Shown one piece after another: positions 1 to 29,240 of a DNA stretch of 64,000 nt. How positions within the stretch are numbered: position 1 is the first letter of the stretch; each line of letters starts with the position of its first letter. Origin of the DNA: Candidatus Saccharimonadales bacterium (GTDB taxonomy: Bacteria > Patescibacteriota > Saccharimonadia > Saccharimonadales > SZUA-47); assembly GCA_041737385.1 (NCBI GenBank), contig JBGSRU010000007.1:5552-69551 (forward strand), written 5' to 3'. The position numbers and the translations under genes were made by a program. The notes under the pieces were generated by a model. It worked only from the letters and a program-made list of their open reading frames with translations, searched no databases and had not been told where the DNA came from.

Positions 1-71
1 TAGTCGCTCTCGCACAGATTATCGTACGATTTATCGTAGGACGAGCAACGGGAACCACCACAGAAGAGTAA
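1..71 (+). CDS. C-terminal fragment (cut by the window edge) of a T4SS-pilin-like small membrane protein; tandem paralog of the next ORF
   Basis: Reading from nt 3 gives VALAQIIVRFIVGRATGTTTEE-stop (TAA 69-71). This closely matches the C-terminus VALAQVIVRFVVDRATLTGSTTTVD of ORF 182-619. Confidence 0.55.
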   Translation, partial: VALAQIIVRFIVGRATGTTTEE

Positions 72-98
72 GTAGTTTTAATTCGTTCAATCGAACTT

Positions 99-127
99 AA
101 AAGAGCGGCCTTCGGTCGCTCTTTTAA
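99..127 (+). terminator. Rho-independent-type hairpin after the truncated pilin-like gene
   Basis: AAAAGAGCGGCC-TTCG-GTCGCTCTTTT: GC-rich stem with a tetraloop, followed by a T-run. Confidence 0.6.
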
Positions 128-181
128 GTTGAAGCTAAGCTATATCTCTGTTAAACTTCAAGTTATATAAAAGGATCAAAC

Positions 182-619
182 ATGAACACGCTTAAAAGAA
201 TATCATTCACCATTGCCCTCTCACTCGGCTTCATCGCGCCGTTAGCTGCTCCGATAGCCGTTAGCGCTCAAGAAATTGAAAAGAACCTACAGTGTGGTGC
301 TAACCTAGAGTTCGTCGTACCAGAAGGCGGCTGTGCAACGGACATAAACGGTGCCAGCGCCGCAGAACGTGTTGACGAAATCGTCTCTCAGGTTATTAAC
401 ATACTATCGCTCGCAGTTGGTGTAGTAGCTGTAGTTATGATTATCGTTGGTGGCCTTCGCTACATCACTTCTGGTGGTGATTCAGGCAATGTGACTGGTG
501 CCAAAAACACAATTCTCTACGCTGTTGTAGGTCTAGTGGTCGTTGCACTCGCACAAGTCATCGTACGATTCGTTGTCGATAGGGCAACTTTGACGGGCTC
601 CACAACCACAGTTGATTAG
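182..619 (+). CDS. TrbC/VirB2-type T4SS-pilin-like protein (signal peptide plus two C-terminal TM helices)
   Basis: N-terminal signal peptide ending AVSAQ. Two hydrophobic helices (VINILSLAVGVVAVVMIIVGGL and ILYAVVGLVVVALAQVIV) are separated by a GGDSGNVTGAKN loop. This is the typical architecture of Gram-positive/CPR conjugative-type pilins. Confidence 0.6.
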   Translation: MNTLKRISFTIALSLGFIAPLAAPIAVSAQEIEKNLQCGANLEFVVPEGGCATDINGASAAERVDEIVSQVINILSLAVGVVAVVMIIVGGLRYITSGGDSGNVTGAKNTILYAVVGLVVVALAQVIVRFVVDRATLTGSTTTVD

Positions 620-640
620 GTAAATCATTACTAGTATTTA

Positions 641-670
641 AAAACCGCCTACGTGAATAGGCGGTTTTTT
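641..670 (+). terminator. Rho-independent terminator
   Basis: AAAACCGCCT-ACGTGAAT-AGGCGGTTTTTTT. Confidence 0.75.
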
Positions 671-753
671 TATAGTAACTCTACAATTAGGCATACTAGA
701 GCACTTAGAGCTTCCCCATCAGTAAGCTAGAAGCAACTACGGGGCCTAGGAAC

Positions 754-1245
754 TTATAAAACTTGGATCTTCTTCACGGTATCTTGCTTCATTTTCGTAA
801 AGCTGACGGTAAGTACACCGTCTTTTAATACGGCTTCGATCTCGTCTTCTTTGACTGGCACAGGTAGCGCAATGCTACGGCTGAATTCACCCCAGTAACA
901 TTCTTGTACAAAATAGTTCTCGACACCAGACTCTTCGCCTGCTGAAAGTGTTCCACGAATACTAAGCGTGTTGTCAGCAATGCTCACGTCGAGCTCGCTT
1001 TTATTAACGCCTGCTGTTCGTGCTTTGACAACTAGTTTCTCTTTTGTTTCAAACACGTCAACAGCTAACTGCCCAGGAACTGCTTCATCTTCTTCCCATT
1101 CATCTTGAACGGCAGTTGGCTCGTCCATACCCATATCGTCATCGTTAGGCATAACTGCCATATTTGAATTATCTTCTTCACCCAAAAACGCAGCGGTTAG
1201 CTCGTCTTCTAGTAATAGGTCGTCGTCGCGAGTCTTTCTCGCCAT
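754..1245 (-). CDS. Hsp20/alpha-crystallin small heat-shock protein with an acidic N-terminal extension
   Basis: C-terminal ACD-like sequence (AVDVFETKEKLVVKARTAGV...ADNTLSIRG...GEFSRSIALP...AVLKDGVLTV). Start moved to the ATG at 1245 (MARKTRDD), which is preceded by AAGGAGGGA. The longer 754-1401 ORF has an implausible Cys-rich leader. Confidence 0.85.
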   Translation of the reverse strand: MARKTRDDDLLLEDELTAAFLGEEDNSNMAVMPNDDDMGMDEPTAVQDEWEEDEAVPGQLAVDVFETKEKLVVKARTAGVNKSELDVSIADNTLSIRGTLSAGEESGVENYFVQECYWGEFSRSIALPVPVKEDEIEAVLKDGVLTVSFTKMKQDTVKKIQVL

Positions 1246-1411
1246 AGTTAGTTCCCTCCTTAAGCTAGTAGAGGCTTGAGAGTCAGACAATCTATTTTTG
1301 ATTGCCTTATTTTCAAGCGTTTTTATGTTATAACCAGTATAGCGGAGTATTACCGCTATGGGCAACTGTTTGCAACCATATTTACAACATATTAAACACA
1401 ACGGACGAGAT

Positions 1412-2092
1412 ATGTATCAGTTAATCGATAAAATAGTCGGATTAGTCGCACCACATACCTGCCTTTCTTGCGGCGTAGAGGGAACGACGCTCTGTCGATC
1501 CTGTATAGATAACTATCAGGAGCCAGTCCAACCACGCTGCGCTGGCTGTCGCGCGCTGATGGAAGACTTTAGAACCTGTGAAAAATGTCTCTCTTGGCTA
1601 CCAGTTAGCTCAGTTTTTGTCACGAATCACTATGAGTCCATCGGTGAACTATTAGTAAAGTCACTAAAATTCGATCATAGACGTCAGTCTATAGAGCCAA
1701 TGGCGGACAGCATGTATGACCTAGTGAAGAATTTTGAGTTCCCCGAGGGTACGGTTATCTGTGCTATCCCGAACGCGCCGTCTCGAGTCAGACAGCGAGG
1801 GTTCGATCATACTGCCCTTCTAGCCGAGCGTCTAAGTAAAAAACTAGGCATGAAGCAAGGTACCCTGCTTGGTCGTCATACCAATACAAGACAAGTGGGC
1901 TCGTCTAGAAAAGCTCGATTTGAGCATATGTCCCAAGCATTTGATCTGAGAAAGACACATCAGCAGAATAAATACGTGCTACTGGTTGATGACGTGGTGA
2001 CGACCGGAGCGACGATTAGTGCGGCAACAAAACTACTGAAACGCTCGGGTGTAAAGCGCGTCTACGCAGTGGTTTTTGCTCAAAAAAACTAA
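1412..2092 (+). CDS. comF: ComF-family phosphoribosyltransferase-domain protein (competence protein ComFC-like)
   Basis: N-terminal paired CxxC zinc-finger motifs (CLSC..CRSC, CAGC..CEKC). C-terminal PRPP-binding loop VLLVDDVVTTGATI. Confidence 0.8.
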   Translation: MYQLIDKIVGLVAPHTCLSCGVEGTTLCRSCIDNYQEPVQPRCAGCRALMEDFRTCEKCLSWLPVSSVFVTNHYESIGELLVKSLKFDHRRQSIEPMADSMYDLVKNFEFPEGTVICAIPNAPSRVRQRGFDHTALLAERLSKKLGMKQGTLLGRHTNTRQVGSSRKARFEHMSQAFDLRKTHQQNKYVLLVDDVVTTGATISAATKLLKRSGVKRVYAVVFAQKN

Positions 2093-2278
2093 TTTCGCTT
2101 CTCTTTCGCTAACGGATACGGTAAGATAGGATAGCATAAAAGTTGTTGTCTGCAGCTTCACAAATTCGAGAGAAGAATCTCGAATTTGAAGAATTGCCGG
2201 CATGATATGGTAGTTATTTTTGCCCAACAAATTTATTTTGTGGGCGGAAAAGCTACCATATCTGTACACGGCAATTCA

Positions 2279-2371
2279 GGAGAGGTACCCAAGTGGCTGA
2301 AGGGGACGGTTTGCTAAATCGTTAGTGGGGCGAAAGTTCCAGCGAGGGTTCGAATCCCTCTCTCTCCGCCA
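2279..2371 (+). tRNA. tRNA-Ser (anticodon GCU), class II with long variable arm, CCA encoded
   Basis: Manual cloverleaf: GGAGAGG/TCTCTCC acceptor, anticodon stem ACGGT/ATCGT with loop TTGCTAA, 21-nt variable arm, T-arm GAGGG-TTCGAAT-CCCTC, then G-CCA. Confidence 0.9.
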
Positions 2372-2750
2372 GAGAGAGACGCTCTGCACCATAAGGTGCG
2401 GGGCGTTTTTCTTTGTCAAAGAAAAGGATTCGAACGCCAAGGGTTCGCTCATTAGTCCTATGCCCGAATTCTATTCGGCGCATAGATTAAGGAGGTAAAC
2501 CATCCCTCTCTCTCCGCCAAAAGAAAGAACAGCCCAAAGCGGCTGTTTTTTCTTTTGGTACGGGGAGTGAGAGATTCGAACCCGAGCGGTCCAGCTGTTC
2601 TCAGCTGGAGGAAGCGAGGAGGTTCGATGACAAGTCTGTTGCCCGAGCAAGCCTCGGCGCACAGATTTATCGTGTAGCATATATCCCTCTCTCTCCGCCG
2701 TCATACGGCAGACGGGCGGATTTCCCCCCTTCCCTCTCTCTCCCCGCCAA
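2372..2750 (+). repeat. Three stacked tRNA-Ser(GCU) 3'-end cassettes (terminator hairpin, inverted pseudo-3'-end, interrupted direct pseudo-3'-end)
   Basis: ATCCCTCTCTCTCCGCCA (2354-2371) recurs at 2502-2519 (18/18), 2683-2700 (17/18) and 2731-2749 (1-nt insertion). Inverted decayed copies lie at 2414-2435 and 2556-2589. Terminator hairpins lie at about 2379-2410 and 2529-2551. Confidence 0.85.
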
Positions 2751-2808
2751 AATCCCGCATACCTCATCTATTTTTAAGTTTAGCGCCAATATTGTCTTTT
2801 GATGTACA

Positions 2809-3327
2809 ATGATGCTTATGGATGAAGGTGATAACCAAGAAGAGAATCAAGGCCAAAGTCAAAACGAAATAGCTCCGGTTTCGTGGTCTGCCTCTGAGTA
2901 CATCAATCACGAGAAATCTTCGACTTGGCACGGCATCTTATTTGTCTCTGCCGGTGCTATAACGTTTATAGTGTTTTTAATATCACGTGACATACTTGCT
3001 TCGATAGTTATATTACTCTCAGCAACTGCTATGAGTGTCTATGCACGAAAGCAGCCACAAACAAAACTGTATTCATTAGATGATCAAGGTGTTTCTGTAG
3101 ATGGTAGGTCATATCCCTATTCAATGTTTAAGTCTTTTTCTGTAGTTGAGGAAGGTAGTATAAACAGTATTTGGTTAAAACCCATACAGCGATTATCGCC
3201 AACAACAGTAATCTACTTTCCACCTGATGAAGGCGATAATATAACCGAACTTTTATCGTACTTTCTACCATTCGAGGAAAAAGGACTTGATACGATAGAT
3301 AGGCTAACAAAGCGGATACGTTTTTAG
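2809..3327 (+). CDS. Hypothetical membrane protein (two TM helices, then a small soluble domain)
   Basis: ORF with hydrophobic segments ILFVSAGAITFIVFLI and ILASIVILLSATAMSVY. No motif recognised. Confidence 0.5.
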   Translation: MMLMDEGDNQEENQGQSQNEIAPVSWSASEYINHEKSSTWHGILFVSAGAITFIVFLISRDILASIVILLSATAMSVYARKQPQTKLYSLDDQGVSVDGRSYPYSMFKSFSVVEEGSINSIWLKPIQRLSPTTVIYFPPDEGDNITELLSYFLPFEEKGLDTIDRLTKRIRF

Positions 3328-3331
3328 AGCT

Positions 3332-4147
3332 GTGAAATCTCGTTTGCACCGTTTTTTGACCTGGATAACAGCATCTTATATTGGAAGCATGTTTGGCTTG
3401 ATGGTTGTCTCGGTATTTTTTTGGGTAACTTTTTCAACTTCAGGAACGATTAATACCGTCCTTCATACTGTAGAGTTCGACTCCGCGCTTCAGGCTTATA
3501 CTTCAGAACAAAGCGGCGTAGACGTATCAAAAAGCAGTGCTGAAAATGAGCAACAAAACTTCTCTGTAGTGGTACATCAATGGATTGAAGGCCCTATAGC
3601 AGAATTTCAATACGAATCAGACTTTTCAGAGCTTAAAAACACCGATCAGATAAGCTTGATTTATTCTCCAGAAGATTCATCAGTCAAAATTAAACCTCAG
3701 AGAATATATTTCTTCGCTAAACTGTACGCAATTATCTCCTTGCCTGTTCTTAGTTTGTGTATTTTGATCATGTATTTATTGCACCGCTCGAAGTTGTATA
3801 TTGTCTATCGTCTCGAGCGCATAGCACTCCTGAGTAGTATTTCGCTGCTAACATCTCTGCCCTTTTTATTCGTTTTCTGGAAATTTACAGCAGAAAGATT
3901 ATCGACATACCCACAAGCTCATCCGATTGCTATGAAGTTAGTTGTTCCACTTGCAAACGAGCTACTTCTCCGTTACGCAATCATTTCTCTTTCTTTTTTC
4001 GCTTTCTATTTCTTGCTCTATCAGATGCTAAAACGAGTATTACGTCACTATCACTACGAACCACCCCACCAGCACAAAAAGCGAAATGACCTACTGTGGT
4101 CCTCAACTAAGCTTGGCCGCATGTACATAAAAAAAGTCTTGAAATAG
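3332..4147 (+). CDS. Hypothetical polytopic membrane protein
   Basis: GTG-initiated ORF immediately after the previous gene. Several hydrophobic helices; no motif recognised. Confidence 0.5.
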   Translation: MKSRLHRFLTWITASYIGSMFGLMVVSVFFWVTFSTSGTINTVLHTVEFDSALQAYTSEQSGVDVSKSSAENEQQNFSVVVHQWIEGPIAEFQYESDFSELKNTDQISLIYSPEDSSVKIKPQRIYFFAKLYAIISLPVLSLCILIMYLLHRSKLYIVYRLERIALLSSISLLTSLPFLFVFWKFTAERLSTYPQAHPIAMKLVVPLANELLLRYAIISLSFFAFYFLLYQMLKRVLRHYHYEPPHQHKKRNDLLWSSTKLGRMYIKKVLK

Positions 4148-4179
4148 GAAGAGTCCATCTTTGCAGATGGACTCTTCCT
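4146..4179 (+). terminator. Perfect 15-bp hairpin after ORF 3332-4147
   Basis: AGGAAGAGTCCATCT-TTGC-AGATGGACTCTTCCT. No clear T-run follows, so it may be a bidirectional or structural terminator. Confidence 0.5.
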
Positions 4180-4180
4180 A

Positions 4181-4369
4181 TGGTGGACACGGCAGGATTT
4201 GCCCACCAATGGCGACCCCGGAAAAACTTCTTAGAAAATAAATTTTCAAGAGTTTGTTCCCTTGCGGACTGCACGAATGACAGCCCTCACTTCCGACCTC
4301 ATCGGTCGTAGATTCAAATCTTCCAAGTAAAGCCAATAAAAAAGCCGGTCAGATGACCGACACTTTTAT
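4181..4369 (-). repeat. tRNA-Arg 3'-end cassette (same architecture as the tRNA-Ser cassettes)
   Basis: 4181-4201 TGGTGGACACGGCAGGATTTG matches the tRNA 3' end TGGTGAACCCGGCAGGATTTG (4370-4390) at 19/21. An opposite-strand decayed copy of the T-arm/acceptor lies at 4303-4335 (21/32). A terminator hairpin lies at about 4341-4362. Confidence 0.8.
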
Positions 4370-4446
4370 TGGTGAACCCGGCAGGATTTGAACCTGCGAC
4401 CTCTTGTACCGCAAACAAACGCTCTATCCAGCTGAGCTACGGGTCC
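4370..4446 (-). tRNA. tRNA-Arg (anticodon GCG), CCA encoded
   Basis: Reverse complement folds as GGACCCG-TA-GCTC..GAGC-G-TTTGT-TTGCGGT-ACAAG-AGGTC-GCAGG-TTCAAAT-CCTGC-CGGGTTC-A-CCA. Confidence 0.85.
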
Positions 4447-4584
4447 TAAACTTTCTTATTACGCCGGTAAAGTGCAAAGAACAGGGGTAATAGTACCAGA
4501 AAACGAAGAAAATAGCTAGTTTAATGATTGCCTTATTCACAAGCTTTCGTCGTATACTGCATCTATAACTTAAAAGGAACCGTC

Positions 4585-4755
4585 ATGGGCAATGGGTTGA
4601 TAGCGTTTTTATTTGGTATTGGAGTCGCTAGCTGGGTCGCAAACAAGTTTTATAAGCGAACGGGTGGTAACACGCTAAAAAGTATTGGCGCTGGTGCTAT
4701 TACAGGCATTTTGGTCTTCTTTTTAATACTGTCTATCTTGTGGCAGATCCCCTAG
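4585..4755 (+). CDS. Small membrane protein (two TM helices)
   Basis: ATG at 4585 preceded by AAAGGA. MGNGLIAFLFGIGVASWV...GAGAITGILVFFLILSILW. The longer ORF from 4528 lacks an RBS. Confidence 0.5.
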   Translation: MGNGLIAFLFGIGVASWVANKFYKRTGGNTLKSIGAGAITGILVFFLILSILWQIP

Positions 4756-4827
4756 ATAGTTTCATCGACTAGCCGTTTCATACTATTTTCTTCTCTTTTT
4801 TCAATAAAAACTGGTATTATGTAGCTA

Positions 4828-5679
4828 ATGGATGAGGTGGGCCTTGGAAAGGCTTTACAACGGGCGAGGAAAACAGCCGGATTGACGCAGCAAGAGTTGT
4901 GTCAGCGTGCTGGTTTATCTTATTCAACATTAGCAAAAATCGAGCGAGGAGCGATCAAGACACCTTCGGTATTTACCGTTGCGCGTGTTGCATCGGTCTT
5001 GGGCACATCGCTTGATGCATTGCTAGGAACAGTAACAACAACTGATCATATGCAGGTAGCCTCGCGTAAAAGTACATCTGGTATTTCGTTCCTGTACGTC
5101 GATATTAATGGCTGTATGGTGCACTTTTTTCACGCTGCGTTTACTCGATTGGCTTACGAAACAGGCATCGCAGCAGATGGTATTGAATCAGCCTTCTGGC
5201 ACTATAATGATGCAGTCTGTCGCGGCGAGATGACGCTTGACGAATTCAACGATGTGCTCGCGAGTCGGCTCGGGCTGCCAGCCATAGCTTGGGCAGATTA
5301 TTATCTTGAAGCAATTGAGCCAATCACAGAAATGCACGAACTTCTCATATGGGCGGCTCAGAACTTTAAAGTTGGGCTATTATCAAATATCATGCCCGGG
5401 TTTATCGACGAAATGATCAAAAACGGTAGCTTGCCAGCTATACGCTATGACGCAATTATTGATTCTTCCGAAGTCGGTGCAATTAAGCCAGAGTTAGACA
5501 TATATAAGCGAGCACAGCTCAAAGCAGGTGTCCCAGCTGATGAAATCTTGTTTGTCGACGACAGCCGTACAAACCTGATGGCAGCTGAACGTCTCGGCTG
5601 GAAAGTACTTTGGTTCAACGACATGCAGCCAACAGAATCGGTTGCACGTATCAAATCATCTTTAGAATTAGCGCCTTAG
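4828..5679 (+). CDS. XRE-family HTH domain fused to a HAD-superfamily (subfamily IA-like) hydrolase domain
   Basis: N-terminus LGKALQRARKTAGLTQQELCQRAGLSYSTLAKIERG is a Cro/C1-type HTH. C-terminus carries the HAD motifs YVDINGCMV, LLSNIMPG, K-P and FVDDSRTNL. Confidence 0.7.
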   Translation: MDEVGLGKALQRARKTAGLTQQELCQRAGLSYSTLAKIERGAIKTPSVFTVARVASVLGTSLDALLGTVTTTDHMQVASRKSTSGISFLYVDINGCMVHFFHAAFTRLAYETGIAADGIESAFWHYNDAVCRGEMTLDEFNDVLASRLGLPAIAWADYYLEAIEPITEMHELLIWAAQNFKVGLLSNIMPGFIDEMIKNGSLPAIRYDAIIDSSEVGAIKPELDIYKRAQLKAGVPADEILFVDDSRTNLMAAERLGWKVLWFNDMQPTESVARIKSSLELAP

Positions 5680-8232
5680 CTAGTCGGGTTTACTGAATCT
5701 TGTAATCTCTGTTGTCATGTTTTCAATTTGGGTAGTAATCTCCGCAAGTTGCGCTTTCGTTTCGTCTATAAGTTTTTTAGGAGCTTTACTCGTGTAATTT
5801 TTGTTGCTCAGCCGTTTCTGAAGCCCCTCAGCACGTTTTACAACCTCATCACGACTCTTAGCTAGTTTCTGCGCATATCGCTCAGCACGTTCGCGGTCAA
5901 TGTCTAGCCAGCAACGATGCGAAGTGCTGACAAGGTGCAACCCCTTCCCGTCTTCAACTTGGTGAACGCCGTCTATCCGAGCAAGTTGTGAAATAAGCTT
6001 TGCGTGCTCTTGCAAGAACGTCACACCCTTATGGTAAAGGGACGTTTTGTCCAGCTGCATCGCTGAAACAATAGTTCTGGTTTCTACGACAATATTCTTG
6101 ATCTCTTCGAACTCAGTTGCTTTTTTGACGTCGTGCTTCATTATTGATGGCCACTTTTGGGATACCAATAGTGAATCGCCAGTTATGTCTAGTGTTTGCC
6201 AGATGGTTTCCGTCACGAATGGCGCAAACGGATGTGCGAGCTTCAGCACAGACTCTAGCGCATACAGGAGTAAATCGGGGTTAAGCTCTTGTTTGCTTGC
6301 TTCAATATACCAATCAGCAAAATCATCCCACACAAAGTGGTAGAGGGTTTCATACGCTTCACTCATCCGATATTCATCTAAGTGAGAGGAAATAACAGAT
6401 ATAGTATGTTGTAATTTATTCAACATCCAATGATCAGCAGGAGTGACAGGACTCGCCTTTGCTGAATCAGGGCTTTTCTCTTCGAGCATACCTTCAACAA
6501 ATCGTGCGATATTCCATATTTTGTTACAGAAATTTCGTGCAGCAAGTGATTTTGCTGGTGCATAAGCTGAGCTATCGCCCGCGCTTCTTCCAGAAATCAT
6601 CCCCATCCGTAGCGCATCAGATCCAAATTCTTCAATGACGGTGTGTGGGCTTATGACATTTCCTAGCGACTTGCTCATCTTTCGACCATCTTCTGAGCGG
6701 ACCATTCCATGCAAATATATATCCTTGAACGGCACATCACCGGTTATATACAACCCAAGACAAATCATACGCGCACCCCACTGGTAGAGGATGTCTGTGC
6801 CCATTTCCATAAGTGTATTAGGATAGAAATCTTTGAAGTCTTTTCCGTCAGGGAAATCTAGAGTTATAAATGGCCATTGACCACTTGAGAACCACGTATC
6901 AAAAACATCAGGATCTCTTCGGTAGTTTTTACCGTCACGCTCAATCACTTCTTCGGAAACCTGCTCATCAAATATCCAATCATCAGGATCATCGACATTT
7001 TGAAATGCTGGTATTGGGATTCCCCAAGCAATTTGTCTACTTATGTTCCAGTCACGAACGTTTTCAAGGTATGTGATCGTTTGTTCTTTTTTACTTGATG
7101 GATAAAAGGTGATTTTGTTGTCTTTTATGGCTTTTATTGCAGGGCCTGCCAGTTTCTTCATATCAACAAACCACTGTTCGAGAAGCATCGGCTCAATCAC
7201 AGTGCCACATTTGTAGCATGTCCCTACCCTGTTTTGATAGGTCTCGTCGACTTTTGTGAGTAGCCCCTTTTCTTTTAGTGCCGCTACCACTGCCGTGCGT
7301 GCCTCGAGCACAGTCATTCCTTCGAACTGACCGGCTCGGTGGTTCATCGTTCCATCATGGTTGATAACTCTTATTGCTTCGAGGTTATGTCGCTTAGCAA
7401 CTTCCCAGTCATTTTGGTCGTGGGCAGGTGTTATTTTAACGACACCAGTACCAAATGTTTTGTCTACCATGTCATCGGCCAGCACTCTGATCTCGAATGG
7501 TCCGTTTATACCTTCAACTTCTATCACCTTGCCGACGTATTCGCTATAACGCTCATCGTCAGGGTGTACTGCAATGGCCGTATCGCCGAACTTTGTTTCT
7601 GGGCGGGTTGTCGCAAGCTCAAATGGGCCATATTTGAGGTAATACAGCGGGGTGGTCCTGTCGACATGAGCGACTTCAATATCTGCGAATCCAGTTCGGT
7701 GTTCGGTGCAGTAGTTTACGAGTCTTTCACCTCTGTAAATAAGCCCATCGTCCCACATTTTTTTAAAAGTGTTGTAGGCGGTTTTGACGACTTTATCTTC
7801 GAGAGTAAACGTAAACCTACTCCAATCAACACTTGCGCCAAATGAGCGAAGCTGTGACTCAAATACTCCTCGATTATTTTCTACGAATTCCCAAATCTGT
7901 TCATATAACTCTTCTCTGCTGAAATCAAATCGACTTTTACCCTCTTTTGCTAGGTGTTTTTCGTAAACAACCTGTGTTTCGAAGCCTGCATGATCAGCAC
8001 CAGGCAGAAACAGTACATTCTTACCCACTGCCCTGTTATAACGAGCCAGAATATCCATTATTGAGTAGTTTAGCGAATGACCAATATGCAGTGGTGCATT
8101 TGCATTTGGCGGTGGCATTACCATGACAAATGGTACGCCCTTCCCTGTTGGCGCAAAGGCTTCGCTTTTCTCCCAAAGTGCGTAAATATCAGCTTCGTAA
8201 GCGTTTGGTTCGTAGTTTTTGGGTAATTTCAT
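5680..8232 (-). CDS. valS: Valine--tRNA ligase
   Basis: 850 aa. HIGH-type motif PLHIGH, KMSKS motif, editing-domain sequence, C-terminal coiled coil. Confidence 0.95.
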   Translation of the reverse strand: MKLPKNYEPNAYEADIYALWEKSEAFAPTGKGVPFVMVMPPPNANAPLHIGHSLNYSIMDILARYNRAVGKNVLFLPGADHAGFETQVVYEKHLAKEGKSRFDFSREELYEQIWEFVENNRGVFESQLRSFGASVDWSRFTFTLEDKVVKTAYNTFKKMWDDGLIYRGERLVNYCTEHRTGFADIEVAHVDRTTPLYYLKYGPFELATTRPETKFGDTAIAVHPDDERYSEYVGKVIEVEGINGPFEIRVLADDMVDKTFGTGVVKITPAHDQNDWEVAKRHNLEAIRVINHDGTMNHRAGQFEGMTVLEARTAVVAALKEKGLLTKVDETYQNRVGTCYKCGTVIEPMLLEQWFVDMKKLAGPAIKAIKDNKITFYPSSKKEQTITYLENVRDWNISRQIAWGIPIPAFQNVDDPDDWIFDEQVSEEVIERDGKNYRRDPDVFDTWFSSGQWPFITLDFPDGKDFKDFYPNTLMEMGTDILYQWGARMICLGLYITGDVPFKDIYLHGMVRSEDGRKMSKSLGNVISPHTVIEEFGSDALRMGMISGRSAGDSSAYAPAKSLAARNFCNKIWNIARFVEGMLEEKSPDSAKASPVTPADHWMLNKLQHTISVISSHLDEYRMSEAYETLYHFVWDDFADWYIEASKQELNPDLLLYALESVLKLAHPFAPFVTETIWQTLDITGDSLLVSQKWPSIMKHDVKKATEFEEIKNIVVETRTIVSAMQLDKTSLYHKGVTFLQEHAKLISQLARIDGVHQVEDGKGLHLVSTSHRCWLDIDRERAERYAQKLAKSRDEVVKRAEGLQKRLSNKNYTSKAPKKLIDETKAQLAEITTQIENMTTEITRFSKPD

Positions 8233-8538
8233 TCTTATCAGTTTACAGCATATCCCCTACCTCTTAACAGGGTTGAAGGTAAAAATGTTATTATAAGGGT
8301 TATGAGCACTCTTTCACGTGAAACAGACGCGCACTAAAAAGCAGGAAGATCCTACTATCCCCTCCACTGTTTAAAAGAAAGAATTTCACATGAAACCACG
8401 AAAATCCTTTGCTAGCACAATATTTACATAAAGTGTTCGCTTTTTGTTCGAAAGAGCTATCTGGTAGTTAATCAGATACTACTTAGCCACTATTTGTTTG
8501 TAAGTCCAGTATAACGGGGGTGTGCATCATAAGCAATA

Positions 8539-8567
8539 TTGACAAAACGAGTAAAATTTGCTATTAT
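8539..8567 (+). promoter_or_regulatory. Sigma-70-type promoter for ORF 8595
   Basis: TTGACA-17 nt-TATTAT. Confidence 0.6.
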
Positions 8568-8594
8568 ATAATTTATTAACTTATAAAACAAAAA

Positions 8595-9986
8595 ATGCCA
8601 GAAACAACATCATCAGAGCCACAGCAGTCCAGTCCTAGCATCATTGTTGATGGTTCCAATCAGGTGGAACAGTTATTATCAGATTACACTGGAGATCAAG
8701 TTGCAGTATTGCCGCAACCCTCTCAAGTGATCTTAAAAATTGAAGAATTAGCTGGATCCATTGACGAAGAAGGAAGAGAGTTGCCAGCGTTAACCAGCGA
8801 GTCTAAGCTTTCGGGAAGAACAACATCAAAAACCTATAAGAATGAAAGAAATGAATATGTTGGATTTTCGCATACCGTTTTTAATGAACATACTATGCAG
8901 GCATACTTTCAGGGCATCGAGCTATCTGCTGGAGAAGGCTATGGGAGATCAGCATATCTTGAAGCTATTAGATACTCTCTTCAAAAAGGATATGATTTTC
9001 GCTCAGATACAGGGACCACTTCAGCCGAAGCTGTAAAAATGTGGAAATGGCTAGAAGAGCAGGGGATCGCAGTGTCTGTAGATGAGTTTGAGCAGCAAAA
9101 AGACATGGCTGGTCAGGCGATGGAAGACACGTACGACGGATATTACGTCGTGAACGGCAACAATCAGCCAAAGATTGCTAAGCAAGGTGTTATACACACG
9201 TCTGATCAATCGGATAAGACGAACGATCAGTTTCCCGAAAAAAAATTCCAGGATGCGTATGAGAAGCAGCGAGGGCTACTAGAAGCACAGCGACAAAGAC
9301 AAAAACAAAGGGAAGCTGAACACATACAGAAATTACAAGATTTGCCTGTTGATGCCGCACCGCGTGTACGTGGAGTCTACGAAGGAAATTTAGCTATGGT
9401 GCGCAGGGGGATGAGGCTTACTGAAGGAGATCTGGAGTTTATGCGTCCTAGCTCAGCCGATGATGTCGCTTATCGTCTCAGGGTGTATGAAACGCTGCCA
9501 AAGGCTATCAGAGAAGCAGTCCCGAAGGGCACGCCGATTCGGTTTCACGGTAGTCCATTTCCTAGAGCTAGAGACATTATAAAAAGCGGTCAGATCTCTT
9601 CATCGGTAGACAGAGAAGGGATTGAGACCAGTTATGACGTTGGTGGTCAAATATCGGTGACAATGCCAGAAGATATCAGCACAACTGTTCATGATTTTAC
9701 CGGCATATTAGCAATGGAGTGCACGGTTCCGGCCGGATGCATTTTTGTGCTTTCTCCAGCGTCTGAAGCAGATGCTCAATCTGGAAGCAGTCAGTTGATG
9801 GGGAGCGTGTATTTTGATGAACAACCAGAACGGCTGTTGGGGATTATGACGTCACCTGAAAATATACCGACAGTACAGGAGTGGGCAGAAGGAGCTGGAA
9901 TAGACACTTCAAAGGTGCACGAATTTTTCGCCTATGCTGACACGTTACGTACCGTGTATCCTCCGGTTCCAGAAGCAATTACATAG
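8595..9986 (+). CDS. Orphan hypothetical protein (463 aa)
   Basis: Long ORF with coding-like composition. Disordered S/P/Q-rich N-terminus. A possible GNAT-like GEGYGRSAYLEAI segment is a weak call. The C-terminal domain is not recognised. Confidence 0.55.
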   Translation: MPETTSSEPQQSSPSIIVDGSNQVEQLLSDYTGDQVAVLPQPSQVILKIEELAGSIDEEGRELPALTSESKLSGRTTSKTYKNERNEYVGFSHTVFNEHTMQAYFQGIELSAGEGYGRSAYLEAIRYSLQKGYDFRSDTGTTSAEAVKMWKWLEEQGIAVSVDEFEQQKDMAGQAMEDTYDGYYVVNGNNQPKIAKQGVIHTSDQSDKTNDQFPEKKFQDAYEKQRGLLEAQRQRQKQREAEHIQKLQDLPVDAAPRVRGVYEGNLAMVRRGMRLTEGDLEFMRPSSADDVAYRLRVYETLPKAIREAVPKGTPIRFHGSPFPRARDIIKSGQISSSVDREGIETSYDVGGQISVTMPEDISTTVHDFTGILAMECTVPAGCIFVLSPASEADAQSGSSQLMGSVYFDEQPERLLGIMTSPENIPTVQEWAEGAGIDTSKVHEFFAYADTLRTVYPPVPEAIT

Positions 9987-27675: not shown

Positions 27676-27814
27676 GGAGAAGAACGGCCAGCATAAGCTG
27701 GTCTTTTTCTTTTAAGAAACAAAGGATTCGATCCGAAAAGGTTCGCTAAATAGTCTTATCACCCTGAAAGGGCTGATAGATTATTTAGGTCTCCTCATCC
27801 TGTTCTCTCCGCCA
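27676..27814 (+). repeat. tRNA-Ser(GGA) 3'-end cassette
   Basis: ATCCTGTTCTCTCCGCCA (27658-27675) repeats perfectly at 27797-27814. Terminator GGCCAGC-ATAA-GCTGGTC plus T-run. Inverted decayed copy at 27714-27734. Direct GGTTCG at 27740-27745 followed by a hairpin insert at 27752-27783. Confidence 0.85.
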
Positions 27815-27856: not shown

Positions 27857-28423
27857 ATGCTCAAATACACTCTACCGGATGTGCATATAGCGCAATCTTA
27901 TGATGAAATGATAGCTTTTAATGGTATTTCAACTTTTACAAGCCCCGAAATCGCAGAAGAGTTAATCGCTCAAGGTGATGGTCGTTACGACAGAGTAAAC
28001 TACGTTCTGCAAAATAGAGGTAGGTTCTTTACTGGTTTACCGGGTAAGAACGCTCGTACATTTGGGACAAGAGATATCGGCTTAAGTGAAGCTTCTCAAC
28101 TACATATCGATCCTGAGGGTAGAGGAGTAGCTCTTTGTGCAATGGGTGAGATGGCCGCAAAGCTTACTCAGCTTGATCTATCAGATGAACCGATAGAGCA
28201 TATTCCTTTTGATATTATGAATATCAACCAAGTTAGGTACGTACAATTAAAAGCAAGAATTGTTGATAATCCACCTTCTGACAGTGATGTATTATCTTTA
28301 ACCGCTCCAGTCGGAACATATATTGCGTTCAACGGTGGTCTTAAATGTGATCCAGCAAAGTTGAACCCTCATGGATTTTCAAGTTCAATATCTCCTAGAG
28401 CTAGTGTTTCTAGCTATCTTTAA
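27857..28423 (+). CDS. Orphan hypothetical protein (188 aa)
   Basis: ORF only. Lies between two tRNA-Ser genes. Confidence 0.45.
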   Translation: MLKYTLPDVHIAQSYDEMIAFNGISTFTSPEIAEELIAQGDGRYDRVNYVLQNRGRFFTGLPGKNARTFGTRDIGLSEASQLHIDPEGRGVALCAMGEMAAKLTQLDLSDEPIEHIPFDIMNINQVRYVQLKARIVDNPPSDSDVLSLTAPVGTYIAFNGGLKCDPAKLNPHGFSSSISPRASVSSYL

Positions 28424-28854
28424 TTTGTGGAGTTTAACAACAGTTTAATTTTATGTTCTTCTTTCGGGGTTACTGATCTACGACCGTCAAAACATTTCAT
28501 AAAAAGATATTCATCACCTTTATCATTTAGCGTATATAGCCAATCATATGCATACTTTTTCGTTTTTTTAATAACATATCCTTGAGAATTAGAATGAATT
28601 CTTCTAAGTTCAACTAACTTGCCTGAAAAGAATCTCACTTGAACTTTTTTTAATTTTCCTTCGTAATCAACCACAATATCGTAGGCTGCTGATTCTGTTA
28701 TTGGTAAAGAAACATCATACCCAGCTTTAGTAAAAGTGGCTATTGCTTGTGTGACTGCATAATCACCTTTGTGCTGAGTAGTTCTCATACACTCATAGTA
28801 CGGTATAGCATACCGTTCTTGCAAATATAATCTGTTATTGTTATAATTTGGCAA
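28420..28854 (-). CDS. PD-(D/E)xK-type nuclease-like protein (start possibly at 28788)
   Basis: GDYAVTQAIATFTKAGYDVSLPITESAAYDIVVDYEGKLKKVQVR fits the E...D...(E/Q)xK pattern of small stand-alone or intron-associated PD-(D/E)xK endonucleases. Confidence 0.5.
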   Translation of the reverse strand: MPNYNNNRLYLQERYAIPYYECMRTTQHKGDYAVTQAIATFTKAGYDVSLPITESAAYDIVVDYEGKLKKVQVRFFSGKLVELRRIHSNSQGYVIKKTKKYAYDWLYTLNDKGDEYLFMKCFDGRRSVTPKEEHKIKLLLNSTN

Positions 28855-28949: not shown

Positions 28950-29240
28950 ATAAAATAACCCCCACATGCAAAACATGTGAGGGTTTATTTTTTGGGAGAG
29001 CACAGAGACAACTTCTTGTCTCTGTGGGGATTCGAACAGCTTAAGCCTTGTTCCGCCCAATGTGCGGAACGGCGCGCCGAGCTCACGAGCATATTGCAGA
29101 GCAATATGACTTGGGAGGTGGAAATCCCTCCCTCTCTGCCAGAGAGAATCGCCTGGGTCTTTTTACGCAGGCGTTTTTCTTTTGCTAAAGAAAAAGGATT
29201 CGAATCACAGGTTCATGAGGTAAAGCATCCCTCCCTCTCC
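28950..29240 (+). repeat. Two stacked tRNA-Ser(UGA) 3'-end cassettes
   Basis: AATCCCTCCCTCTCCGCCA (28931-28949) recurs at 29123-29141 (18/19), and as ATCCCTCCCTCTCC at 29227-29240. Inverted decayed copies at 28993-29036 and 29183-29206. Terminator hairpins after each CCA. Confidence 0.8.

Follow-up and report, generated by a model that had tools for sequence, protein, structure and literature searches.

What is the gene-free, tRNA-like cassette that trails the arginine transfer RNA (tRNA) gene in a 64,000-nucleotide stretch of DNA from a member of the Saccharibacteria (TM7, Patescibacteria), namely contig JBGSRU010000007.1, positions 5,552 to 69,551, of assembly GCA_041737385.1 (hereafter the window)? 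The genomes of these organisms are about 1 Mb in size and tightly packed, yet 100-400 nucleotides (nt) of structured non-coding DNA are kept behind many of their tRNA genes. A first-pass annotation of the window had proposed that the cassette behind tRNA-Arg was made from that tRNA, with no mobile sequence common to different sites. We find that the outer parts of the cassette, its arms, do come from the adjoining tRNA, while the 88 nt that they enclose belong to a conserved module family that is found at many other tRNA genes. The explanation that we favor, and to which we give about even odds (a probability of roughly 0.5), is that such cassettes contain non-autonomous structured modules that home to tRNA T-loop contexts, have target-derived arms, and depend on an enzyme acting in trans. 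The four tRNA genes of the window, which are specific for Ser-GCT, Arg-GCG, Ser-GGA and Ser-TGA, are all trailed by at least one cassette of this kind, and in related bacteria such cassettes are found behind nearly all types of tRNA gene.

The cassette proper at tRNA-Arg (4181-4335) forms part of a 189-nt tRNA trailer that contains no open reading frame (ORF). In the orientation of the tRNA, which is encoded on the minus strand, the locus begins with an intact tRNA-Arg gene with the anticodon GCG and an encoded CCA (4370-4446; identified by ARAGORN and scoring 65 bits with the Rfam tRNA model). Flush with the CCA is an intrinsic terminator (4336-4369) made up of an A-tract, a GC stem and a T-tract, after which comes TGG. 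The hairpin, GTCGGTCATCTGACCGGC plus a T-run, had been proposed to act in the tRNA orientation, and this was borne out by a terminator scan, which detected it on both strands, so the terminator is bidirectional; relatives without a cassette also have terminators of this style behind tRNA-Arg. The left arm (4304-4335, minus strand) is an inverted pseudo-copy of the 3' part of tRNA-Arg, comprising the T-arm, a degenerate acceptor and TGG, with 21 of 32 positions identical to the tRNA. Its end pairs with the start of the direct arm to give an apex hairpin (4294-4308, minus strand), which is evident in the sequence and in the minimum-free-energy fold. Its 5-bp stem, CGACC (4294-4298) with GGTCG (4304-4308), closes a 5-nt loop, GATGA in tRNA orientation; a turn pairing CCGACC (4294-4299) with CGGTCG (4303-4308) had been described previously, with coordinates off by one. 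The direct arm starts with a copy of the variable loop and the 5' strand of the T-stem (4290-4298, minus strand; GGTCGGAAG versus GGTCGCAGG, 7/9 identical by alignment, helix 1), and this is the 5' half of a pseudo T-stem that closes the module. The module itself, designated type IV, is a conserved three-hairpin domain of 88 nt in the position of the T-loop (4202-4289, minus strand) that is recognized by a covariance model. It is followed by the right arm, which directly repeats the part of the tRNA that extends from T-loop to CCA (4181-4201, minus strand; CAAATCCTGCCGTGTCCACCA, 19/21 identity). Beyond the cassette, a second hairpin (4147-4180, strand not assigned), noted from the sequence and the ORF list, adjoins the stop codon of a convergent ORF (3332-4147).

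The origin of the arms was examined in the window, in metagenomic cassettes and in a comparison set of 80 Saccharibacteria loci (L001-L080) fetched around the gene orthologous to that of the window valyl-tRNA synthetase (ValRS; 5680-8232, minus strand), whose sequence is no more than 76% identical to the ValRS of any of these loci. The right arm, previously reported as a 19/21 match to the last 21 nt of tRNA-Arg, was confirmed as such, and it is the only other match in the whole window at three or fewer mismatches, where none is expected (100 shuffles). The left arm retains its reported score of 21/32, with its start corrected from 4303 to 4304. The trailer of 189 nt was dinucleotide-shuffled 5000 times, giving best ungapped scores with a mean of 14.9 and a standard deviation of 1.16, and the probability of reaching 21 or more was 4e-4. 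When aligned with 56 Arg-GCG tRNAs the inverted piece scores a mean of 20.6/32, while with Ser tRNAs it scores 15.2-16.7, which is the null level. The match is therefore beyond random expectation and is not equally good with unrelated Ser tRNAs. Since the tRNAs Thr-TGT, Trp and Gln, which have similar T-arms, reach 20-21, the piece is Arg-like but not uniquely diagnostic. In 63 of 68 metagenomic cassettes the inverted arm fits its own tRNA better than non-cognate ones (score 22.0 versus 14.8), with the similarity concentrated on T-arm positions 50-65 and a match of only 19-44% in the acceptor part. The distal direct copy is exactly the neighboring tRNA sequence in 52 of 122 cases, and when it was paired with the tRNA 5' strand, as a test of whether it is the displaced original, 45 differences kept the pairing and 60 broke it. 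The alignment scores and the exact copies support the derivation of the arms from each cassette's own tRNA, as had been proposed.

Other parts of that proposal fared less well. Several of the differences between the inverted piece and the tRNA had been described as transitions, which is a weak point as only 5 of the 11 are; 7 are GC-to-AT, and adenine mutagenesis of the type carried out by diversity-generating retroelements is ruled out, as just 1 of the 11 lies at an A. The distinction between ATTTGAA in the Arg piece and ATTCGAA in the Ser pieces holds within the window but not always elsewhere, where some inverted pieces have the other T-loop variant (such as those of L028 and L047). The window piece is also homologous to the corresponding piece in L024, L028, L042 and L068. 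A templated or target-copying process is a fair description of how the arms were made, but the view that no one mobile consensus is shared was not supported, as the sequence between the arms is a conserved module.

This core has a conserved fold and is not restricted to tRNA-Arg. The type IV alignment contains eight members, each of about 113 nt and with 30 invariant columns, from cassettes at Arg-GCG, Arg-TCG, Arg-TCT, Met, Glu and Ser-CGA genes and from a copy of tRNA-Pro. In the RNAalifold consensus a pseudo T-stem closes three hairpins with a total of 40 pairs, 25 of which hold through compensatory changes on both sides. Paired cells amount to 95.3% compared with 75.4% in shuffles (none of 500 was as high), and sliding the partners lowers the figure to 31-49%; all eight sequences retain one invariant G.U pair. 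The covariance model built for the family (R1) finds the window module at 4187-4300 with 92.5 bits and E = 1.4e-23, and further members in L051, L011, L017, L006 (three), L068 (three), L152 and L111, such that the family is now known at tRNA-Ser, Met, Glu, Pro and Lys genes as well as at other Arg genes. Nine of 16 members are located 55-276 nt downstream of a same-strand tRNA, representing seven tRNA species, and another two are contained in a 5'-complete tRNA copy, with the intact cognate tRNA 23-37 nt further downstream. A different arrangement is seen in L068 (17355-17575), where a pair of type IV modules, one on each strand, stand back to back and well away from any annotated tRNA.

Type IV is one of several module families that occupy the same place. 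ARAGORN identified 170 tRNAs in the 80 loci plus the window, of which 169 could be scored for copies of the 3' end (the last 16 nt with up to two mismatches, within 450 nt downstream). A same-strand downstream copy is present at 24 of these 169 tRNAs, an upstream copy at one, and an opposite-strand copy at none; in the metagenome loci the downstream copy is seen at 54 of 146 tRNAs. These copies always begin sharply within the T-loop, with a left edge at CGAATCC, AATCC or ATCC that differs between cassette types, and they usually end precisely at CCA. The overall anatomy, in tRNA orientation, is a tRNA ending in CCA, a bidirectional terminator that is often followed by TTGG, an inverted T-arm copy with a degenerate acceptor part, a short apex hairpin, a direct copy of the T-stem 5' strand plus TTCG, the structured module, and a direct copy that starts on the 3' side of the T-loop and ends with CCA. 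Hence the module takes the place of the T-loop in a partial tRNA copy. A comparison with cassette-free relatives, made to see whether the proximal terminator is native, gave a mixed picture, in which L040 gained a terminator together with its cassette while L018, L024 and L170 duplicate theirs. The same geometry of tRNA, terminator and inverted pseudo-copy is found with two genuine genes in L011 (6853-7056), where tRNA-Ser-CGA and tRNA-Arg converge on one 34-nt bidirectional terminator. The families, which are told apart by their conserved motifs, are type a (GTTCG..AGTC..GATT, the motif of window Ser cassettes), type b (CGCRCAG-hairpin-CGAGCAT), type III, the Arg-linked family ArgF (GTTTTCCTT) and type IV, and the motifs are almost confined to the 450 nt downstream of a same-strand tRNA. 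The first 100 nt of the window Arg cassette can be aligned with the ArgF cassettes of L024, L028, L042 and L068.

The breadth of the phenomenon is best seen with type b. A strict type b pattern, scanned across metagenome contigs, was found in at least 120 contigs, with 124 motifs among the matches listed. Of the motifs listed, 79 are no more than 400 nt downstream of a same-strand tRNA, representing at least 29 tRNA species, and many of the others are at contig ends or are split from the tRNA by an inserted island. Among the same matches, and counting only those pattern positions that are free to vary, helix H2 is Watson-Crick paired in 349 of 357 cells with seven stem variants, the remainder being 7 G.T and 1 A.C. 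No Rfam family was matched at type b loci, and scans of viral contigs for the type a and type b motifs yielded nothing, or chance matches inside genes only. Copies of the type b core motif that are not near a detected tRNA exist at L097:1127-1150, L118:9144-9167 and L192:7267-7290, embedded in a larger conserved context (TTTGYTCATGAGGAGCA ... GTGACGAAATGG) that has no Rfam match.

Several observations indicate that a fixed core moves or spreads and that only its flanks are target-derived. Over a stretch of 71 nt with GGTTCG and TCC as its borders, the type b modules behind tRNA-Ser-CGA in L093 and tRNA-Met in L139 are 97% identical, while the terminators, inverted pieces and 3' copies of these two cassettes are unrelated. 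The module types are scattered over the ValRS tree, and different tRNAs of one genome often have the same type, as with type a at two tRNAs in L077 and at both Ser-GCT and Ser-GGA in the window, type b twice in both L047 and L056, and type III twice in L026. In other species most orthologous tRNAs, when inspected as the first-pass annotation had suggested, carry the terminator only, so the presence of a cassette varies from species to species. Arrays of tandem cassettes are found in the window and in L006, L068, L112, L119, L170 and L186. Fresh events are recorded by the long repeats in L018 and L024, which start in the T-loop, span the terminator and stop within the first nucleotides of the inverted arm. 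In L018 a perfect 60-bp repeat, made up of the T-loop-to-CCA portion, the terminator and a further 8 nt, encloses a unique segment of 128 nt that opens with the inverted T-arm, and in L024 the repeat is 83 bp; across cassettes the flanking repeats range from 17 to 83 bp. Finally, a module can be situated in the T-loop of a 5'-complete tRNA copy just upstream of the intact cognate tRNA, as in L162 (tRNA-Thr, type b), L134 (tRNA-Pro, type IV) and L017 (tRNA-Ser-CGA, type IV). The feature common to all cases is a module inside a T-loop with an intact tRNA next door.

If the modules are non-autonomous mobile elements, they would home to the T-loop contexts of tRNA genes or of tRNA-derived copies, and their arms would be copied from, or recombined with, the target tRNA. 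Each event would create tRNA-derived arms and, with the arms taken from the target, would leave an intact tRNA beside a module-bearing partial copy, repeated events would produce tandem arrays, and foldback at the palindromic terminator may contribute to the formation of the arms. The spread would be by active transposition or recombination, the active form would be the folded tRNA-sense single strand, either RNA or single-stranded DNA, and the work would be done by an enzyme encoded elsewhere. A wider proposal is that these modules make up an undescribed class of at least four families that home specifically to the T-loop of tRNA genes and tRNA-derived copies across the Patescibacteria and that spread as a folded tRNA-sense strand (RNA or single-stranded DNA) by means of a trans-acting enzyme or intrinsic catalysis; this we put forward tentatively, with the odds somewhat against it.

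Several points weigh against mobility. The cassettes have no ORF and no enzyme was identified, the ORFs flanking the window cassette have no Pfam match to a recombinase, a tblastn search of the window and the 80 loci with an XerD query gave no Xer-like tyrosine recombinase, and the serine recombinases that are found at these tRNAs belong to separate, module-free islands. Mobility by itself does not explain how an inverted and a direct cognate arm originate at each new site. The structure of the cassettes is heterogeneous in that the second repeat includes the terminator in L018, L024 and L170 and the cassette precedes the terminator in L044. No excised form was recovered, nor any pair of empty and filled sites from one population; the sole other contig with the locus is identical to the window, and the next relative has 75% identity at the protein level. 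Lastly, the strong structural conservation and the invariant loop nucleotides fit an RNA of use to the host equally well.

The main alternative is built on this last point. It holds that the cassettes are not mobile and are genes for host-useful structured non-coding RNAs that evolved from tRNA duplicates, with a T-stem as scaffold, an enlarged 'T-loop' domain and a 3' tail that is tRNA-like and terminates in CCA, and that these are transcribed with the tRNA or by read-through. The strong covariation and invariant loop nucleotides are what such RNAs would be expected to display, and there are signals of strand. The type IV G.U pair is invariant in the tRNA-sense strand and the differences in type b H2 are 7 G.T to 1 A.C, both pointing to that strand, and the window Arg cassette has a folding energy of -50.6 kcal/mol in the tRNA sense compared with -37.9 in the antisense. 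These signals fit a folded RNA or a folded single DNA strand alike, and the energy difference has no counterpart in 25 cassettes taken together, which have no overall strand bias (13 of 25, p = 0.83). Transcription could be envisaged for the 5'-complete versions in L162, L134 and L017, which are behind promoter-like sequence and upstream of the intact tRNA, whereas most copies are behind canonical terminators and no sigma-70-like promoter was found inside the window cassettes. Moreover, a host RNA would not be expected to be so patchy, with most orthologous tRNAs lacking a cassette, nor to have several unrelated module families in one slot, nor to occur in tandem arrays and in many truncated or decayed 3' copies. 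We therefore regard this explanation as unlikely, although it is the most serious of the rivals. Two narrower RNA candidates were rejected. A functional tRNA-like cloverleaf or minihelix is at odds with the absence of acceptor pairing in most cassettes, and an opposite-strand small RNA with a 5' antisense guide would have no room for a promoter in the arrays and would use the strand that folds less well. In the minimum-free-energy fold of the window cassette the 3' tail folds on itself. With Rfam, only the four tRNAs of the window reach the gathering score, and in the region 2000-4700 nothing credible appears at E values up to 10.

A second alternative is that the cassettes are scars of ordinary integrase islands, where the tRNA was restored, its old 3' fragment was displaced, and later all but the arms proximal to the attachment site was lost. 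Regeneration of the tRNA with a displaced fragment left behind is the established general principle for islands (Islander, PMC4383910), and these tRNAs are proven integration hot spots. Islands that encode large serine recombinases with Resolvase, Recombinase and Zn_ribbon_recom domains directly adjoin the 3' end of the tRNA in L096, L176 and L197, and there are other cases or remnants in L065 (a remnant), L018, L058 and L181; relatives of these enzymes on viral contigs are distant only. The islands, however, do not have the structure of cassettes. Their distal (right) junctions in L096, L176 and L197 keep only the last 5-10 nt of the tRNA rather than the sequence from T-loop to CCA, and their ends are without modules, which makes them separate users of the same hot spot. 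The cassettes do not consist of island arm sequence at these three loci, and while they display the regenerated tRNA and displaced 3' repeat of an island element, they have no integrase inside. No full-length islands with modules in their arm regions were seen. In addition, random deletion scars would not yield conserved folds with compensatory changes, and neither the presence of the same module between T-loop halves at 29 or more tRNA species nor the 5'-complete copies upstream of the tRNA would be accounted for. It is thus improbable that the cassettes as a whole are remnants of this type.

The genes for the serine recombinases were located at L096:280-1932, L176:1268-2809, L197:2709-3968 and L065:15772-16332. 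Those of L096, L065 and L176 run antisense into the 3' end of tRNA-Arg or tRNA-Glu genes, and that of L197 is about 770 nt downstream of tRNA-Gln. Each heads an island of 4-7 kb that lies between the tRNA and an older type b cassette. A classical island remnant is present in L033 (14795-16508), where tRNA-Arg is followed by a 1.6-kb island that lacks an integrase and is terminated by a 65-nt copy of the tRNA. As judged from the translations, it encodes a PP2C-like phosphatase, a putative antitoxin and a putative PIN-toxin. The L033 island is in keeping with scars.

The third alternative dispenses with movement altogether and attributes the cassettes to local duplication by foldback and template switching. 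The palindromic terminator (CCA plus A-tract ... T-tract plus TGG) would let the nascent strand snap back, copy the 3' end of the tRNA backwards, and switch back through T-stem complementarity to give a direct-inverted-direct pattern. In agreement with this, the TGG at the start of the inverted piece directly adjoins the T-tract of a perfect palindrome, the orientation alternates among the three copies, and the repeats in L018 and L024 extend from the T-loop past the terminator into the first nucleotides of the inverted arm. The second terminator copy in L018 and L024, however, keeps its loop orientation, unlike what would result from backward copying of the same strand, and this contradicts self-primed snap-back from the terminator as the full mechanism. 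Foldback also cannot account for conserved cores that are common to different tRNAs and genomes. The earlier suggestion that local foldback might be sufficient is therefore ruled out by the shared modules, and as an account of the cassettes it has perhaps the least going for it of the three; foldback survives as a possible source of the arms.

How do the cassettes compare with known systems? Like tRNA-targeting islands, they combine an intact tRNA with a direct repeat of its 3' part starting in the T-loop, they form tandem arrays at one tRNA, and the same tRNAs host real serine-recombinase islands. They differ from such islands in being 100-250 bp in size without integrase or cargo, in adding an inverted T-arm copy and a structured core in the T-loop position, and in that some versions duplicate the 5' part of the tRNA instead. 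In miniature inverted-repeat transposable elements (MITEs) the terminal inverted repeats are fixed and the target-site duplication is short and does not vary in length, while the palindrome-associated non-autonomous elements (PATEs) of the IS200/IS605 group have subterminal hairpins, use a fixed short target without duplication, and rely on the Y1 transposase, TnpA. The cassettes resemble both in being small, ORF-less, hairpin-rich and present as many diverged copies per lineage, with near-identical cores at different sites, and the module junctions, GGTTCG / module / ATCC without duplication, resemble those of IS200/IS605. No transposase partner was found, with the inspection for TnpA being limited to 64 kb of the genome. 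A MITE is excluded as the 'terminal repeats' are copies of the neighboring, cognate tRNA that vary by site rather than fixed ends, and the duplications of 17-83 bp are not of constant length.

Integron cassettes are another comparison. These are moved by the integrase IntI between an attI site and attC sites with R''/R' core sites (RYYYAAC / GTTRRRY). As with attC and the CTX-phi attP hairpin, the structure of the cassettes is kept while the sequence is not, ORF-less cassettes occur in arrays, and the inverted and direct arms are predicted to fold into a duplex that mimics a double-stranded target. The differences are that neither IntI nor Xer sites were found, that there are no R or L boxes, and that the target is the tRNA T-arm. 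An integron origin was rejected, there being no tyrosine recombinase nearby and the arms being T-arm sequence rather than R boxes. Among archaea, Fujishima et al. reportedly described in 2010 transposing tRNA introns at non-canonical positions in the Thermoproteales. These are similar to the modules in that related short insertions are found at the same position, including the T-loop, in many tRNA genes. Unlike them, the modules have a bacterial host, show no evidence of splicing, and reside in partial or non-functional duplicates beside an intact gene. The guide RNAs of TIGR-Tas and IS110 systems accompany an adjacent gene for a Nop-domain or DEDD protein, with tandem spacers of about 9 nt and box C/D motifs. 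The cassettes have no adjacent ORF of this sort, and their arms of 20-30 nt and units of about 150 nt do not correspond to the 36-nt units of TIGR-Tas arrays (PMC12045711), so that a TIGR-Tas guide or an IS110 dual-strand guide was rejected. The group I introns in tRNA genes of Patescibacteria are unrelated (PMC13011429). Searches of the literature found no description of these cassettes, which correspond to none of the RNA families or mobile elements described so far.

Mobile modules, if that is what they are, would be smaller than any other element known to target tRNA genes, and they would reveal a novel means of entering an essential gene without destroying it, an intact copy always being left beside the insertion. 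If they are RNAs, they would add several new conserved folds built on the T-stem scaffold of tRNA. The cassettes also create pseudo-tRNA fragments that confuse the annotation of tRNAs and islands, and they mark recombination hot spots in an uncultivated phylum.

The sister cassettes at the Ser genes of the window are all on the plus strand. Two with type a modules form an array behind tRNA-Ser(GCT), the first (2372-2519) ending in an 18/18 copy of the tRNA 3' end, and the second (2520-2700) being followed by a third, degenerate 3'-end copy (2730-2749). The cassette behind tRNA-Ser(GGA) (27676-27814) also has a type a module and an 18/18 copy. Two more lie behind tRNA-Ser(TGA) (28950-29240), of which the first (28950-29141) has the usual arms and a core outside all of the defined module families, and the second resembles type a in truncated form. 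Two ORFs (27857-28854) separate the Ser-GGA cassette from tRNA-Ser-TGA, one encoding a 188-residue protein without a Pfam match and the other a PD-(D/E)XK endonuclease (PDDEXK_5) that ends 6 nt before tRNA-Ser-TGA; together they may constitute a small inserted island.

Two further features concern the surroundings of tRNA-Arg. The anticodon of the tRNA-Arg that adjoins the ValRS gene is GCG, whereas ACG is usual in bacteria; this holds for the window and for each of the 50 related loci in which the gene was found (tRNA-Arg genes of L003-L080). The cumulative GC skew, noted for positions 1-9000 of the window, has its minimum at approximately 6-8 kb and rises steadily thereafter, which suggests a replication origin or a strand switch near the ValRS gene.

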